A stretch of 64,000 nucleotides of DNA from positions 1,359 to 65,358 of the forward strand of contig DASRDU010000014.1 in the NCBI GenBank assembly GCA_035652435.1. Direction: 5' to 3'. Numbering within the stretch: position 1 is the stretch's first letter; the number at the start of each line of letters is the position of its first letter. Made by a program: the position numbers and the translations under genes. Under the pieces are notes generated by a model. It was not told where the DNA came from. It saw only the letters and a list, made by a program, of their open reading frames with translations, and made no database searches. This DNA is from Blastocatellia bacterium. GTDB taxonomy: Bacteria; Acidobacteriota; Blastocatellia; RBC074. This document shows, in pieces, positions 43,557 through 45,401 of this stretch.

Positions 43557-45401
43557 TTAACGTTTTCCCCGGCAGTTCGGGAAGCGGAAGGCGCCGATCC
43601 TGGTCGAATAGTTCGTCTCGCCCTTCTTCAGGTAATCGCCGACGTACCAGATCGTGCAGTCGTCGCTCGGATCAACGGCCGTCTGCGTGTAATCCTCCCA
43701 GCGCATGACGTTCTGCGCGGCCTCGCCTTCCGCGAGTACCGTCTCGCGCAGCGTCAACTGACCGGGCGGATCTTTGGCGAGTCGCCCGGCGAAGCGCTGT
43801 CCGGCGAAGTTCGGCGCCCCGCCGAACGAGTAGCCGATGCCGATGTTGCCCCGCCGGTCAATTGCGGGGCTCGCCATCCAGCGGTAAAAGCCGTCGGGCG
43901 CGTAGGTGCCCTGCTGGTGCAGCCTGACGCTGCGATCCTTGTTGACGCGGAACTCGTACCAGCGCACGCCGCCACCGCCCACAGAAGTGTTGACCGAGTG
44001 GACGGCGACGATGGATTCCTGGTTGCCGATCCTGCGGTACACGAGCCGCGCCATGATCTTGTCACCCTGTGCGTCGAGCCGACGGTCGGTCCCCGGCTGC
44101 GGCACGCAGTTGGTGAGCTGCCCGTCGCACAGGTAATGATAAGGCGCGACGGCGATCTTCTCAGGCCCCGTCACCTTCGTGTTCGCCGGATTCTCCCAGT
44201 CAACGTGGAACTGCCAGACGAAGATGCCGTCATCTTCCATGACTTTCTTCAACTGCGTGCCGCCGGCCGCCATCATGATGTTCGGCGCACCCCTTGGCGG
44301 CAGTCCACGGCCGTCAATGTCGGCGTTGTTCAGGAAGTTCACGCCGTCAATGATGACGCACTGCTCGCGGGCGGGCTCGCCTTTGAGCATCTTCGCGCGC
44401 TCGGCGACGCAGGCGTGTTTCTGGATCACTTCGTCGCCCGTGCTGGTCGGGATGTAGTAGCCGTCGGGCCAGATCGCGGGCCGGGGGTAGTCGGGGAAGA
44501 GCGGGCGCAGGAATTCGTAGCGGTAATACGAGCCGAGCGGATCGGGGCCGGTGCTGATGGCGTAGCACATCGAGTACGGCCCCTGCGGCTGCGCGCCCTG
44601 ATTGCCCTGCCCGCCCTGATTACGCTGCTGCGGGGGCGCCGGGGTGCTGCTGTAGGGCGGCACGAAGAGCGGGGCCGCCGCCCCGGGCTGACCCGGCCGG
44701 CCGGGCACGCTTAACTGCGCCGGCTCGCCGGCTCGCCCGGGTTGCGGCTGGTCCGGTCTTGCTGCGCCGCGCCGGAAAGTCGGCATCACGATCAGCCAGC
44801 GGTCCGCGATCTGGTCGTAACGCACGACCGTGTCGCCGTTGTTCGTCGCCTCGCACGCGCCGCCGAAGCCTTTGAAGACCGTGTTGTTCGGCACCGGGCC
44901 GTAGAGTACTTTGCCCTGCTTGTCGAAAACAGCCATGCGAGTGTTGACAGTCTGCACGATGTGATTCGGCCCGACGGCAAGGCTGTTGTCGGACGGGTTG
45001 CGCAAGACAGCCTTGCCCTGCGGGCCTTCGAACCCGACGCCGAGCCCGTCGAAGCTGGCGACGAGCGTAGCCCCAGGGCCTGAGCCCTGTGATCGTTGCT
45101 CCACCACCGCCGAGCCGGGCGGAGTAATCATCACGGGCGGCGAGATGTGCGCGGCAGGATTCTGCTGCGCCGCCTTTGCGTCTTCAGAATCCGCGTCTCC
45201 GCCGGGAACTGACAGCGAGTTGAGCGGACGGGAGAGATCGCGGGCCGCGGCCGCGTCAATTGTGACCGCGCCGGCTCTGGCGTGATGCACATCTGCGCCG
45301 GTGTTACTCGGCGGGTGCGGGAGGTCCGCGGCGAAGGCGATGACGATTGCGAGTGCGGCCGCGCCGGCGGCGACTTTGATCGCCTGGGTGATCTGGTTCA
45401 T
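43557..45401 (-). CDS. Large secreted hypothetical protein (614 aa) of unrecognised family, with a Pro/Gln/Gly-rich low-complexity insert.
   Basis: Signal-anchor 'KVAAGAAALAIVIAFAA'. The conserved-looking globular parts ('VRWYEFRVNKDRSVRLHQQGTYAPDGFYRWMASPAIDRRGNIGIGYSFGG', 'CTIWYVGDYLKKGETNYSTRIGAFRF') match no family I recognise. Insert 'PDQPQPGRAGEPAQLSVPGRPGQPGAAAPLFVPPYSSTPAPPQQRNQGGQGNQGAQPQGP'. Confidence 0.6.
   Translation of the reverse strand: MNQITQAIKVAAGAAALAIVIAFAADLPHPPSNTGADVHHARAGAVTIDAAAARDLSRPLNSLSVPGGDADSEDAKAAQQNPAAHISPPVMITPPGSAVVEQRSQGSGPGATLVASFDGLGVGFEGPQGKAVLRNPSDNSLAVGPNHIVQTVNTRMAVFDKQGKVLYGPVPNNTVFKGFGGACEATNNGDTVVRYDQIADRWLIVMPTFRRGAARPDQPQPGRAGEPAQLSVPGRPGQPGAAAPLFVPPYSSTPAPPQQRNQGGQGNQGAQPQGPYSMCYAISTGPDPLGSYYRYEFLRPLFPDYPRPAIWPDGYYIPTSTGDEVIQKHACVAERAKMLKGEPAREQCVIIDGVNFLNNADIDGRGLPPRGAPNIMMAAGGTQLKKVMEDDGIFVWQFHVDWENPANTKVTGPEKIAVAPYHYLCDGQLTNCVPQPGTDRRLDAQGDKIMARLVYRRIGNQESIVAVHSVNTSVGGGGVRWYEFRVNKDRSVRLHQQGTYAPDGFYRWMASPAIDRRGNIGIGYSFGGAPNFAGQRFAGRLAKDPPGQLTLRETVLAEGEAAQNVMRWEDYTQTAVDPSDDCTIWYVGDYLKKGETNYSTRIGAFRFPNCRGKR

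Follow-up and report, generated by a model that had tools for sequence, protein, structure and literature searches.

A stretch of 64,000 nucleotides from a Blastocatellia bacterium (contig DASRDU010000014.1; referred to here as the window) contains, between genes for a TonB-dependent receptor and for exported peptidases, an open reading frame for a 614-residue protein, and the question is what this protein does at such a locus. A preliminary description, made from the sequence by itself, presented it as a secreted protein of an unrecognized family and suggested a novel hydrolase, lyase or peptidase, or else a SusD-like surface binding protein. Our analysis retains the picture of an exported, unrecognized protein that is part of a degradative operon, argues against the SusD analogy, and adds two aspects that had been overlooked: the exopeptidases, led by the M24B family, that neighbor the gene in related genomes, and the theme of the locus, which is hydroxyproline-rich glycoprotein (HRGP). 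These glycoproteins, which comprise the extensins and arabinogalactan proteins, account for a major share of the nitrogen-containing material in plant cell walls. To our knowledge, little has been described of how soil bacteria dismantle their protease-resistant, heavily arabinosylated poly-hydroxyproline backbones, and the systems known from Bifidobacterium and Xanthomonas cover the sugars only.

Family, fold and export signal

The open reading frame starts with ATG, and the database entry identical to its product is annotated as a "hypothetical protein" from a Blastocatellia metagenome-assembled genome (P0001). Pfam and NCBIfam scans of the protein returned zero matches, even at E ≤ 1, and no relative was found in the PDB by sequence search or by a profile search with 24 diverse relatives. 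When all 24 relatives were scanned against Pfam at a permissive threshold, the matches were to accessory domains and never to the propeller described below, and a literature search found no paper on the family. Homologs are abundant, with more than 5,700 matches in one search and at least 11,794 cluster representatives in an exhaustive search; the gene is therefore far beyond a chance open reading frame, and the spurious-frame alternative raised earlier is ruled out. The protein belongs to a very large family that is described in no database and has neither a Pfam model nor a solved structure, in line with its first classification as unrecognized. The coordinates of the gene, its segments and its neighbors are given in Table 1.

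Table 1. Positions in the window of the propeller gene, its segments and the surrounding genes.
Feature	Position	Strand	Basis
Open reading frame, 614 aa; exported seven-bladed beta-propeller (predicted) of an uncharacterized superfamily	43557..45401	minus	Stop codon 43557-43559; ORF call, structure models and fold searches
N-terminal hydrophobic export signal, aa 1-25 (MNQITQAIKVAAGAAALAIVIAFAA), ending in conserved A-F-A	45327..45401	minus	Sequence, alignment, model
Disordered, poorly conserved leader, aa 26-81	45159..45326	minus	pLDDT <50 in model
Strands that close blade 7, then blade 1 and the first two strands (A-B) of blade 2, aa 82-208	44778..45158	minus	DSSP of model
P/G/Q-rich insertion, B-C loop of blade 2, aa 209-275	44577..44777	minus	Composition, model, conservation
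Rest of blade 2 and blades 3-7, aa 276-614	43560..44576	minus	DSSP of model, invariant residues
TonB-dependent-type outer-membrane receptor (CarboxypepD_reg + OMP_b-brl_4); heads the operon	45483..49358	minus	Pfam E=3e-126
Exported HExxH protein, 300 aa (HEFSH at aa 187), putative metallopeptidase	42605..43507	minus	Signal peptide; sub-threshold M90/ATLF matches only
Exported dipeptidyl-peptidase IV (DPP-IV; S9B)	40229..42562	minus	DPPIV_N and Peptidase_S9 Pfam; signal peptide
GH127 beta-L-arabinofuranosidase with C-terminal F5/8 type C domain	37696..40170	minus	Pfam
GntR/FCD (FadR-like) regulator	36807..37517	minus	Pfam
GH31 alpha-glycosidase (+DUF5110)	34226..36709	minus	Pfam; recurs with the propeller gene
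GH51 alpha-L-arabinofuranosidase	31439..33001	minus	Pfam
AraC-family regulator, divergent from the operon, beside the hydroxyproline genes (LhpR-like position)	50110..50931	plus	Pfam
Hydroxyproline catabolic cluster	51100..55694	plus	Pfam, ORFs

The structure model (pLDDT 85.4, pTM 0.83) is all-beta with seven four-stranded blades, and the protein is predicted to be a one-domain seven-bladed beta-propeller. In the N-terminal part of the domain (aa 82-208), DSSP assigns strands at residues 112-121, 139-143, 147-152, 155-160, 165-171, 192-196 and 201-208. The model contradicts the original picture of globular blocks joined by a linker, since it consists of a single propeller in which the P/G/Q-rich segment sits between two strands of blade 2. 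That segment is real, with 22% P, 16% G and 16% Q, but it is better described as an insertion than as a linker, and it is mostly ordered: residues 209-255 have a pLDDT of about 90 and only residues 256-272 or so are disordered. RPDQP and QPG within it are invariant among close orthologs. Of the 76 homologous loci that could be scored, 53 have the long version and 23 have a spacer of 10-27 residues instead, and distant relatives align to the protein as two stretches on either side of it. It is a lineage-specific insertion in a blade-2 loop. All 15 loci with an adjacent peptidase have the long insert (15/53 with the insert versus 0/23 without), a correlation that is confounded by phylogeny.

Generic seven-bladed propellers, such as E. 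coli YncE, WDR61 and virginiamycin B lyase Vgb, superpose on about 55% of the roughly 530-residue domain at 6-12% identity. The protein differs from them in that its sequence lacks WD and YVTN repeats and matches no Pfam family, and in having four disulfides, the 67-residue Pro/Gln/Gly insertion and a conserved disulfide-bearing excursion of 34 residues (419-452, C425-C432, CVPQPGT...LD.QGDK). A possible kinship with the seven-bladed polysaccharide and streptogramin lyases (PL24/25 ulvan lyase, Vgb) would call for sequence homology and a conserved His/Tyr/Arg or His/Glu-Mg catalytic set, such as the His/Glu/Mg site of Vgb; our protein has no invariant histidine. A comparison of the protein's profile with itself revealed no significant repeats, and no WD40 or Kelch Pfam repeats were matched. 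Membership in the Kelch group was considered after a phmmer match to the designed Kelch protein SAKe and rejected; in this match, the sole one by sequence, a single blade (aa 146-211) had matched three times, with i-Evalues per stretch of about 1-2.

The hydrophobic N-terminus, modeled as a helix over residues 3-25, had been described as a signal-anchor. A hydrophobic segment is indeed present, but it ends in A-F-A (AFA or AFT is kept across the alignment), and judged by eye a cleavable signal peptide is therefore at least as likely. The protein has no lipobox cysteine, the first cysteine being residue 183. Its eight cysteines are invariant or nearly so, an even set with none unpaired that is consistent with disulfides; together with the hydrophobic segment, they fit the exported protein proposed at the outset. 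Signal peptides are also present on all of its operon partners. The leader that follows shows 29% identity among close orthologs as compared to 79-88% for the core, yet it contains a motif kept throughout the superfamily, [TV]V..A...[HF]D[VIL]S.PL (aa 47-60, nt 45222-45263), in which D55, S57 and L60 are nearly invariant. It is possibly a pro-segment.

The protein is conserved at 55-77% identity across Acidobacteriota, Gemmatimonadota, Bacteroidota and others. In an alignment that spans 39-84% identity, the invariant residues include the acidic D190, D304, D313, D447, D515, E553, D570, D577 and D580, as well as Y305, Y315, Y316, W311, W585, R335, R452 and R456, and no histidine. When generic propeller topology is applied to the DSSP string of the model, most of the invariant carboxylates, tyrosines, tryptophans and arginines would fall on the entry ("top") face. 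The protein contains no HExxH or D-T/S-G motif, and no conserved motif or family profile for the known peptidase catalytic types (Ser/His/Asp, Cys/His, metallo- and Asp-Thr-Gly). Likewise, GH127 and the other arabinofuranosidase and arabinobiosidase families that have Pfam models gave no match, whereas the three true GH127 genes of the window score at E ≤ 1e-111. The first impression that the protein has no recognizable catalytic motif agrees with these searches.

Gene context in the window and in related genomes

On the minus strand, the receptor gene is followed after 81 nt by the propeller gene, which is separated by 49 nt from the gene for the HExxH protein and this in turn by 42 nt from the DPP-IV gene; genes for GH127, GntR, GH31, MBL and GH51 proteins continue in the same direction. 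The short gaps, the shared direction and the combination of peptidases and glycosidases bear out the proposal that the gene is embedded in a minus-strand degradative operon. A scan of the operon for promoters and terminators revealed nothing that exceeds the shuffled expectation. The HExxH protein has no family assignment and no PDB relative; its orthologs are found at 85-87% identity in three homologous loci (L087, L088 and L092). The open reading frame of the GH127 enzyme reaches position 40458, and the likely start at 40170 would give it a lipoprotein-like LVAAC signal. Glycosidase genes in the window belong to GH127 (three genes), GH51 (two), and GH43 and GH31 (one each), and none is a recognizable GH121.

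The hydroxyproline cluster consists of genes for a Pro-racemase-like epimerase, assigned by a tblastn match to other loci, a DAO-type dehydrogenase, an 82-residue open reading frame that is likely a ferredoxin subunit, a Pyr_redox_2 subunit and a DHDPS-family deaminase. The same gene set is present in L002, with Pfam matches to Pro_racemase and Fer2_4, and the AraC gene lies next to the hydroxyproline genes in L002, L088, L089 and L092 as well. The AraC-type regulator LhpR controls hydroxyproline catabolism, while the hydroxyproline regulator HypR of S. meliloti is of the GntR/FCD type (PMC6608401). For the operon, a response to hydroxyproline and control by an AraC-type regulator are probable. 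With a TonB-dependent receptor, three GH127 enzymes, GH51, GH31, exported proline-specific exopeptidases and a complete hydroxyproline pathway, the locus is therefore a candidate for a complete HRGP utilization system in the Acidobacteriota.

Two systems for the use of such glycoproteins offer a comparison. Bifidobacterium longum (hypBA1, hypBA2 and hypAA) and Xanthomonas euvesicatoria (XCV2724-2729) likewise combine GH127 with an alpha-L-arabinofuranosidase (PMC7263609, PMC6085000), and in Xanthomonas a prolyl oligopeptidase gene adjoins the HRGP genes (PMC6085000). These systems use GH121 and an ABC importer and are not known to have a protein resembling the propeller, whereas the locus studied here has a TonB-dependent receptor, several exported proline-specific exopeptidases, a full hydroxyproline catabolic cluster and the propeller.

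In the window and in L002 the gene lies directly downstream of a receptor gene, and in L088 and L092 it shares an operon with one. Such a position could indicate a SusD analog, a ligand-binding protein exposed on the surface that caps the receptor beside it. The window has no SusD homolog, as was already noted in the preliminary description, which had built this idea on the premise of a SusC-like porin. SusD/RagB proteins have an all-alpha, TPR-like fold, are lipobox lipoproteins and are obligate neighbors of SusC-type receptors. The propeller model is all-beta, the signal of the protein ends in A-F-A, its first cysteine lies far from a lipobox position, and the Pfam SusD_RagB/SusD-like profile gave no match in it at E ≤ 1; the premise is weak as well, since the receptor has the domains CarboxypepD_reg and OMP_b-brl_4 and no NCBIfam SusC/RagA match. 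An association of the homologs with TonB-dependent receptors had been proposed as a check. Of 91 homologous loci, 2 have such a receptor at a distance of up to 500 nt, and 8 have one at up to 10 kb. In L088 and L092, furthermore, an M24B peptidase gene stands between the receptor and the propeller genes, and what comes after the window's other receptor genes is unrelated (DUF885, GH127). The SusD idea fails because the homologs do not track TonB-dependent receptors, and we consider it extremely improbable.

A different association emerged from the gene-called contexts of 13 orthologs (57-100% identity), which are not independent observations because their lineages are related. A same-strand N-terminal exopeptidase or putative metallopeptidase directly adjoins the gene in 11 of them (M24B Xaa-Pro peptidase in six, DPP-IV in two, and M61, M28 and the HExxH protein in one each), and a proline dehydrogenase does so in one more. 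The M24B and propeller genes overlap by 4 nt in L088 and are separated by 5 nt in L094. Eight M24B matches lie within 500 nt of the homologs as compared to three in the remaining 1,312 kb of flanking sequence, an enrichment of about 40-fold. Genes for GH31 or GH27, GH127, an AraC regulator and hydroxyproline catabolism recur around the orthologs and usually lie close by; a GH27 alpha-galactosidase takes the place of GH31 in L094, and the order in a Balneolaceae genome is DPP-IV, propeller, DHDPS, Aldedh. The operon is kept in several gene orders in different classes of the Acidobacteriota, in Gemmatimonadales and in Balneolaceae. The gene studied here is co-operonic with proline-specific exopeptidases and lies near hydroxyproline catabolism, AraC, GH31 and GH127 genes, and so belongs to a functional grouping, that of operons for the use of hydroxyproline-rich (glyco)peptides, which is proposed here and is not an established family. 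It is the one uncharacterized protein that constantly accompanies the peptidases. In this lineage, we regard it as a core gene of an operon for the uptake and breakdown of hydroxyproline- and proline-rich glycopeptides of the extensin and arabinogalactan-protein type.

Most family members are encoded by stand-alone genes with unrelated neighbors: a peptidase is adjacent in 15 of the 91 loci and in none of the other 76, and each Pfam family found in 66 likely operon partners is represented at most twice. An unbiased clustering of the neighborhoods of 77 loci did not reveal a partner common to all; what looked like a cluster in one case turned out to be the antisense reading frame of the propeller gene itself. 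The orthologs in the Bacteroidales adjoin a Fur-regulated, FecCD-type metal-chelate importer, with a Fur regulator, a FecCD permease, a Peripla_BP_2 protein and a TonB-dependent receptor around the gene in both L026 and L031 and a FecCD-like permease in L048. Such contexts, and the size and diverse architectures of the superfamily, would suit a general extracytoplasmic function, for example one linked to metals or cofactors, in which case the placement in this operon would reflect lineage-specific recruitment or coincidence. A role unrelated to the theme of the locus is nevertheless quite unlikely in view of the enrichment of adjacent peptidases, the translational coupling with M24B and the persistence of the operon across gene orders and phyla.

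Candidate functions of the propeller

The operon combines proline-specific peptidases with plant-glycoprotein glycosidases, and the protein is therefore probably a new enzyme or a substrate-handling protein for the digestion of hydroxyproline-rich plant cell-wall proteins. We tentatively favor, with a probability of roughly 0.4, the hypothesis that it is an exported carboxylate-based enzyme that acts on extensin-type (glyco)peptides rich in hydroxyproline and proline, and thereby feeds the exopeptidases. Glycopeptides would be taken in via the TonB-dependent receptor, and the propeller would cut or unblock them endo-wise with an active site of invariant carboxylates, tyrosines or tryptophans, and arginines, located mostly on the entry face. 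The endo cuts would create free N-termini for the adjacent exported exopeptidases (M24B Xaa-Pro peptidase, DPP-IV, M61, M28 or the HExxH protein), while GH127, GH51 and GH31 or GH27 would remove arabinose and galactose and the freed hydroxyproline would be broken down by the neighboring catabolic pathway. The ordered insertion in the top-face loop of blade 2 may act as a lid or a pseudo-substrate. A novel hydrolase, lyase or peptidase, as first suggested, is still the leading class of explanation. The fold, the export signals, the conservation and the gene context come from the analysis itself, and it is the catalysis, the substrate and the site-bearing face that we infer from them.

Against an enzyme speak the lack of a catalytic motif of the known peptidase and glycosidase families, the small share of loci with an adjacent peptidase and the metal-chelate importer context in the Bacteroidales. 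We also know of no beta-propeller with an endopeptidase site of its own. A bolder version of the favored hypothesis makes the protein the first of a new class of catalysts, a propeller "extensinase" that cleaves hydroxyproline-rich backbones or hydroxyproline-linked glycopeptides with a carboxylate, tyrosine and arginine site of its own and uses the insert as a pseudo-substrate lid; this version is rather doubtful. If it were true, the protein would open the structural glycoproteins of the plant cell wall to proline-specific exopeptidases, and the rest of the superfamily, which numbers at least 11,794 clusters, would be extracellular hydrolases of soil bacteria that have so far stayed hidden as a family. 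More generally, with a function assigned to this protein, thousands of secreted proteins now listed as "hypothetical" in abundant soil phyla would gain an annotation, and a new class of enzyme might come to light.

Yet another possibility is that the protein acts on the sugars of these glycoproteins, as a new family of glycoside hydrolases or lyases with a sialidase- or lyase-like site. It could for example release hydroxyproline-linked beta-L-arabino-oligosaccharides, a GH121-like step that the locus lacks, or remove acidic sugars from the side chains of arabinogalactan proteins. Sialidases and their BNR relatives (GH33 NanA/NanC, trans-sialidases) provide the best (E down to 2e-6) and most numerous Foldseek matches, about 21 of the best 50 against the PDB, the others including GH43 enzymes and the ulvan lyase Uly1. 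Sialidases use an Arg triad, an Asp acid/base and a Tyr-Glu nucleophile pair in the central pocket; invariant Arg, Asp, Glu and Tyr residues, which may or may not form such a pocket, occur in our protein. Carboxylates, tyrosines or tryptophans, and arginines, which are prominent among the invariants, form a set typical of carbohydrate-active sites, and the recurring D-x-G...R-[WY] hairpins of the protein recall Asp-boxes. GH127 and GH31 genes occur within 10 kb in 9 and 8 of the 91 loci, respectively, and some distant relatives have carbohydrate-binding modules (CBM_4_9, malectin), which point to glycans. However, the sialidase similarity is weak (TM 0.26-0.35, about 10% identity), the protein has seven blades instead of six, no RIP motif and no Pfam match to BNR, BNR_2 or Sortilin-Vps10. 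Membership among the Asp-box/BNR propellers, considered because of the hairpins, was rejected after the self-comparison of the profile showed no significant repeats and hhalign against BNR/sortilin proteins gave a probability of 1.5%, and we keep it as a loose structural resemblance only. Moreover, in L086, L090, L091, L004 and L093 the propeller gene adjoins a gene for a peptidase or for proline dehydrogenase, and flanks of 8-10 kb contain no glycosidase gene there. The tightest link, the translational coupling, is to the M24B peptidase rather than to a glycosidase. An action on glycans is in our view unlikely, yet a serious competitor of the favored hypothesis.

The protein may also bind without catalyzing. 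An aromatic and acidic face could recognize proline- and hydroxyproline-rich peptides in the polyproline-II conformation, and the propeller would then present them to the exopeptidases or filter them. The lack of a catalytic motif would be explained, the invariant tyrosines and tryptophans would suit the recognition of proline-rich ligands, and the tight coupling to M24B would suit a stoichiometric partner. Among the varying partner peptidases, M24B, M28 and M61 contain no propeller domain, in contrast to DPP-IV (Pfam DPPIV_N). The propellers of the S9 peptidases (prolyl oligopeptidase, DPP-IV) and the hemopexin domain of collagenases offer an analogy, as non-catalytic domains that gate or present proline-rich substrates. 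These are fused to a catalytic domain, whereas our protein is separate, exported and disulfide-bonded, and it has no sequence similarity to the S9 propellers (no DPPIV_N or Peptidase_S9_N match). The conservation across phyla is unusually high for a binding module and the carboxylates are fixed over the whole alignment; 76 loci have no peptidase neighbor, and the variation in gene order and partner family argues against one fixed complex. We judge a purely binding or gating role to be improbable, to a similar degree as an action on glycans, and likewise a serious competitor. The architecture of the distant relatives, which are large secreted proteins, speaks for an enzyme and against this role: the propeller is their sole head domain, placed before Ig-like stalks and in some of them ahead of domains of the secreted-protease type (P_proprotein, PPC, InhA-like MAM), where a catalytic domain would be expected.

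The family and its predicted propeller fold

The 614-aa protein had been described as belonging to no recognised family, and this holds: it matched nothing in Pfam or NCBIfam even at E ≤ 1, and a profile of 24 diverse relatives found no relative among the PDB sequences (best E = 1.1), so that the family is without a solved representative. The sole PDB sequence match, of residues 146-211 (one blade length) to repeats in a designed Kelch protein, had i-Evalues of about 1-2 per stretch. A word-indexed search returned more than 5,728 homologues, and when 1.84 billion cluster representatives were searched exhaustively with HMMER, 11,794 matched at E ≤ 1e-3, of which 4,083 reached E ≤ 1e-30. 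The top 120 homologues (71-86% identity) are all called "hypothetical" where they bear names, as is P0001, a protein record from a Blastocatellia MAG with the same sequence, and our literature searches found no publication on the family. The fold is common, and operons linked to TonB-dependent receptors (TBDRs) and systems degrading the sugars of hydroxyproline-rich glycoproteins (HRGPs) are already known; what is new is a family without a Pfam model, solved structure or named member in the searches made.

When one genome per species was scanned, at least 600 entries resulted. The best 80 loci belong to the Acidobacteriota (Blastocatellia, Vicinamibacterales, Solibacteraceae, Bryobacterales, Acidobacteriaceae), Gemmatimonadota, Bacteroidota, Balneolaceae, Gemmataceae, Myxococcota, Streptomyces, Streptosporangium, Chthoniobacterales, Dormibacterota and Rhodanobacteraceae, with cross-phylum identities of 55-77%. 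In close orthologues the core (residues 80-614) is 79-88% identical, as against 29% for the leader (residues 27-79). The concern that the ORF might be spurious is dispelled by this abundance and conservation, and the gene is real and heavily constrained. The hydrophobic N-terminal segment ends in a conserved A-F-A and eight cysteines (183, 279, 331, 348, 425, 432, 582, 610) are fully or almost fully conserved, which indicates a disulfide-bonded protein that is exported, the latter as the preliminary description had supposed. A leader motif, [TV]V..A...[HF]D[VIL]S.PL (residues 47-60), is kept across the whole superfamily and may mark a pro-segment or serve as a signal for processing or docking; the rest of the leader is variable and disordered, and some close orthologues lack the leader entirely.

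Built on a shallow alignment, the first model reached a pTM of 0.74; the second, from 78 sequences of 39-84% identity, reached a mean pLDDT of 85.4 and a pTM of 0.83. The predicted structure is all-beta with seven four-stranded blades, the N-terminal strands 112-121 closing blade 7. The modelling and fold search suggested in the preliminary description thus produced a seven-bladed propeller but only loose matches, the top Foldseek ranks being sialidases, PLL lectins, the ulvan lyase Uly1 and GH43 enzymes (TM 0.2-0.55, about 10% identity). Hairpins of the form D-x-G...R-[WY] recur and are Asp-box-like. Because a self-profile comparison gave no significant repeats, and a comparison with BNR/sortilin proteins of the same loci gave a probability of 1.5%, kinship with the latter was rejected, and the likeness to sialidases is a loose structural echo in fold, not a profile-level relationship.

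The stretch rich in Pro, Gln and Gly (residues 209-275; P 22%, G 16%, Q 16%) had been called a linker of about 60 aa between globular blocks; its composition is as described, its role is not. The second model places it in blade 2, flanked by strands 201-208 and 276-283, with pLDDT 89-96 for residues 201-250 and disorder only at about 256-272. Its first part contains invariant RPDQP and QPG in the close-orthologue alignment, distant relatives align in two stretches on either side of it, and the spacer measures 58-90 aa in 53 loci versus 10-27 aa in 23. The stretch is thus a lineage-specific, largely ordered insertion inside a single domain. One Solibacteraceae MAG carries two paralogues of the short-spacer type (68% and 54% identical to the target), so the family can be multi-copy.

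The probable hydroxyproline theme of the locus

The target gene is preceded, at 81 nt, by a receptor of 1,291 aa (CarboxypepD_reg and OMP_b-brl_4 by Pfam, TonB-dependent type) and followed after 49 nt by a gene for an HExxH protein and after a further 42 nt by DPP-IV; a terminator and promoter scan of the operon gave no signal between genes above shuffled expectation. The HExxH protein has no above-threshold Pfam match (only weak M90/anthrax-LF-like ones) and no PDB relative, and it represents a second uncharacterised family, probably a metallopeptidase. Its orthologues (85-87% identity) accompany the target in L087, L088 and L092, and in 6 of 91 loci the two genes are no more than 3 kb apart. 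If the GH127 gene of this operon starts at 40170 (MKPTSKRL...LVAAC) its overlap with the DPP-IV gene disappears and a lipoprotein-like signal is gained, so that the enzyme may be surface- or membrane-tethered.

Features of the window
Feature	Position	Strand	Remarks
GH43	9-1901		
M20 peptidase	3117-4622		
Second GH51	5420-7039		
Sulfatase	7086-8756		
CarboxypepD_reg + OMP_b-brl_4 ORF	9539-11284	+	581 aa; spans positions 1-299 of 838-position barrel profile; possibly a truncated or frameshifted TBDR
Third GH127	11917-14457		
Sortilin/BNR protein	14568-17384		
PSCyt1/PSCyt2/PSD1 protein	18425-20992	+	DUF1549/DUF1553
Second full TBDR	22874-26779		
DUF885	27268-28932		after second TBDR
Another GH127	28966-31416		
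GH127 of target operon	37696-40458	-	from first ATG, 230-nt overlap with DPP-IV gene
HExxH protein	42605-43507	-	300 aa, exported; HEFSH at aa 187
Target	43557-45401	-	ORF call, ATG start
Leader motif	45222-45263	-	
AraC regulator and complete-looking Hyp catabolic cluster	50110-55694	+	divergent from target operon; same layout in L002
Pro-racemase-like	51100-52119	+	
DAO	52116-53246	+	
82-aa ORF	53239-53487	+	likely ferredoxin subunit
Pyr_redox_2	53429-54763	+	
DHDPS-family	54786-55694	+	
DeoR regulator, Leloir genes, periplasmic sugar-binding protein	56178-62737	+	just past Hyp cluster
GalT	57111-58154	+	
GHMP/galactokinase	59202-60698	+	
GalE	60759-61745	+	

The window encodes three GH127 beta-L-arabinofuranosidases, two GH51 enzymes and one each of GH43 and GH31, besides M20 and DPP-IV peptidases and three TBDRs, of which one is apparently truncated; with the further genes at positions 9-31416, it is an arabinofuranoside/HRGP super-locus. 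The hydroxyproline (Hyp) cluster comprises an epimerase-like gene, a three-part D-Hyp dehydrogenase and a DHDPS-family deaminase, beside the AraC regulator. Hyp catabolism is governed by the AraC-type activator LhpR in P. aeruginosa and regulated by the GntR/FadR-type HypR in S. meliloti (PMC6608401), and both regulator types occur at the target locus. HypBA1 of family GH127 acts on Hyp-linked beta-L-arabinosides of extensin (PMC10850190; PMC7263609), whose Ser-Hyp4 repeats bear Hyp-O-arabinosides and Ser-O-alpha-galactose (PMC5371791), the latter fitting the GH31/GH27 enzymes and galactose genes. The Leloir genes are consistent with the use of galactose freed from glycoproteins, and in Xanthomonas a prolyl oligopeptidase gene adjoins HRGP arabinosidase genes (PMC6085000). 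From these enzymes, regulators and the Xanthomonas precedent, the best reading of the locus is a system by which hydroxyproline-rich glycoprotein or glycopeptide is utilised. The planctomycete-type PSCyt1/PSCyt2/PSD1 cytochrome-like protein is an observation apart in acidobacterial DNA; in L001 (342-3635) a similar gene, accompanied by DUF1501 partners, is found upstream of the target homologue.

Conserved neighbours and possible functions

Unbiased clustering of ORFs from 77 loci revealed no universal neighbour, the best cluster occurring in 15 loci, and no Pfam family appeared more than twice among 66 likely operon partners. The pattern in the orthologue clade rests on 13 contexts with gene calls, in 11 of which an N-terminal exopeptidase or putative metallopeptidase directly adjoins the target on the same strand, and in one further context proline dehydrogenase does.

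Gene order around target homologues (T)
Context	Order
Window	TBDR-T-HExxH-DPPIV-GH127-GntR-GH31-MBL (metallo-beta-lactamase fold)-GH51; AraC and Hyp genes divergent
L002	Hyp genes-AraC / TBDR-T-DPPIV-MFS...M61...GntR-GH31
L086	M24B-T
L087	Aldedh-M24B-T-GH31-HExxH-DPPIV
L088	AraC / TBDR-M24B-T (4-nt overlap)-GH31-HExxH-DPPIV
L089	DHDPS-AraC / T-DPPIV-GH127...GntR-GH31
L090	M24B-T
L091	M28-T
L092	AraC / TBDR-M24B-T-GH31-HExxH-GH127
L004	T-M61
L093 (57% identity)	Pro_dh-T; M28/M20 and M10 peptidases nearby
L094 (67% identity)	T-M24B (5-nt gap)-Tricorn/PD40; divergent GH27 alpha-galactosidase and aldose epimerase
L001	none of these partner genes

Across 91 loci, a peptidase adjoins the target in 15 (Blastocatellia, Vicinamibacterales, Solibacteraceae, Gemmatimonadales and Balneolaceae, the last in the order DPP-IV, target, DHDPS, aldehyde dehydrogenase), and M24B matches are enriched about 40-fold, with eight within 500 nt (89 kb) versus three in the other 1,312 kb. 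The long insert is present in all 15 peptidase-adjacent loci (15/53 versus 0/23, Fisher p = 0.0035, confounded by relatedness). Since all partner enzymes have signal peptides, the module is predicted to act outside the cytoplasm. This consistent partnership with exported Pro-specific exopeptidases in a Hyp-centred operon is likewise new.

The suggestion that the protein is a SusD analogue whose homologues always neighbour TBDRs is refuted by the rarity of receptors of the window's type: of 91 loci, 2 have one within 500 nt and 8 within 10 kb. We give the suggestion almost no credence. A role unrelated to the locus is distinctly improbable, although in Bacteroidales the orthologue adjoins a Fur/FecCD metal-chelate importer. 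Bacteroidota orthologues (62-64% identity) are flanked not by peptidases but by FecCD permease, Peripla_BP_2, ABC ATPase, Fur regulator and Plug/TonB receptor genes (L026, 6371-16795; L031, 2967-17157; L048, 1530-2609), and these metal-chelate-uptake-type flanks are unexplained by the function proposed here.

Within the 39-84% identity set, nine carboxylates (D190, D304, D313, D447, D515, E553, D570, D577, D580) are invariant, as are five aromatics (Y305, W311, Y315, Y316, W585) and R335, R452, R456 and other arginines, and D138 is nearly so; the alignment contains no invariant His or unpaired Cys. When standard propeller topology (D-to-A and B-to-C loops forming the entry face) is laid on the DSSP string, most of these residues and the insertion would fall on the top face. 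These features lead us to favour an enzyme, tentatively and with a probability of about 0.4: the carboxylate-based chemistry of the propeller would cut or unblock Hyp/Pro-rich (glyco)peptides, and the neighbouring N-terminal exopeptidases would then proceed on the opened peptides. DPP-IV does not cut a bond that is followed by Pro or Hyp, which makes an additional activity for poly-Hyp stretches plausible. A hydrolase or lyase acting on glycans would agree with the fold matches to sialidases and lyases and with the missing GH121 function, but some contexts hold peptidases only and we consider it unlikely; that the protein is instead a non-catalytic binding or gating partner of the exopeptidases seems doubtful. 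Should the propeller prove catalytic on HRGP backbones, it would represent a new enzyme class.

The distant members (about 40% identity) are secreted proteins of 500-2,300 aa with a propeller of the target type as their only head domain, followed by Big_7, Big_3_5, fn3, TIG, DUF11, CARDB, PKD, SLH or dockerin modules; no known catalytic domain was fused to the propeller in those examined. Several carry accessory domains of secreted proteases (P_proprotein, PPC, InhA-like MAM), the first of which is the source of the JGI name "subtilisin-like proprotein convertase family", and a few have CBM_4_9 or malectin domains in their place.
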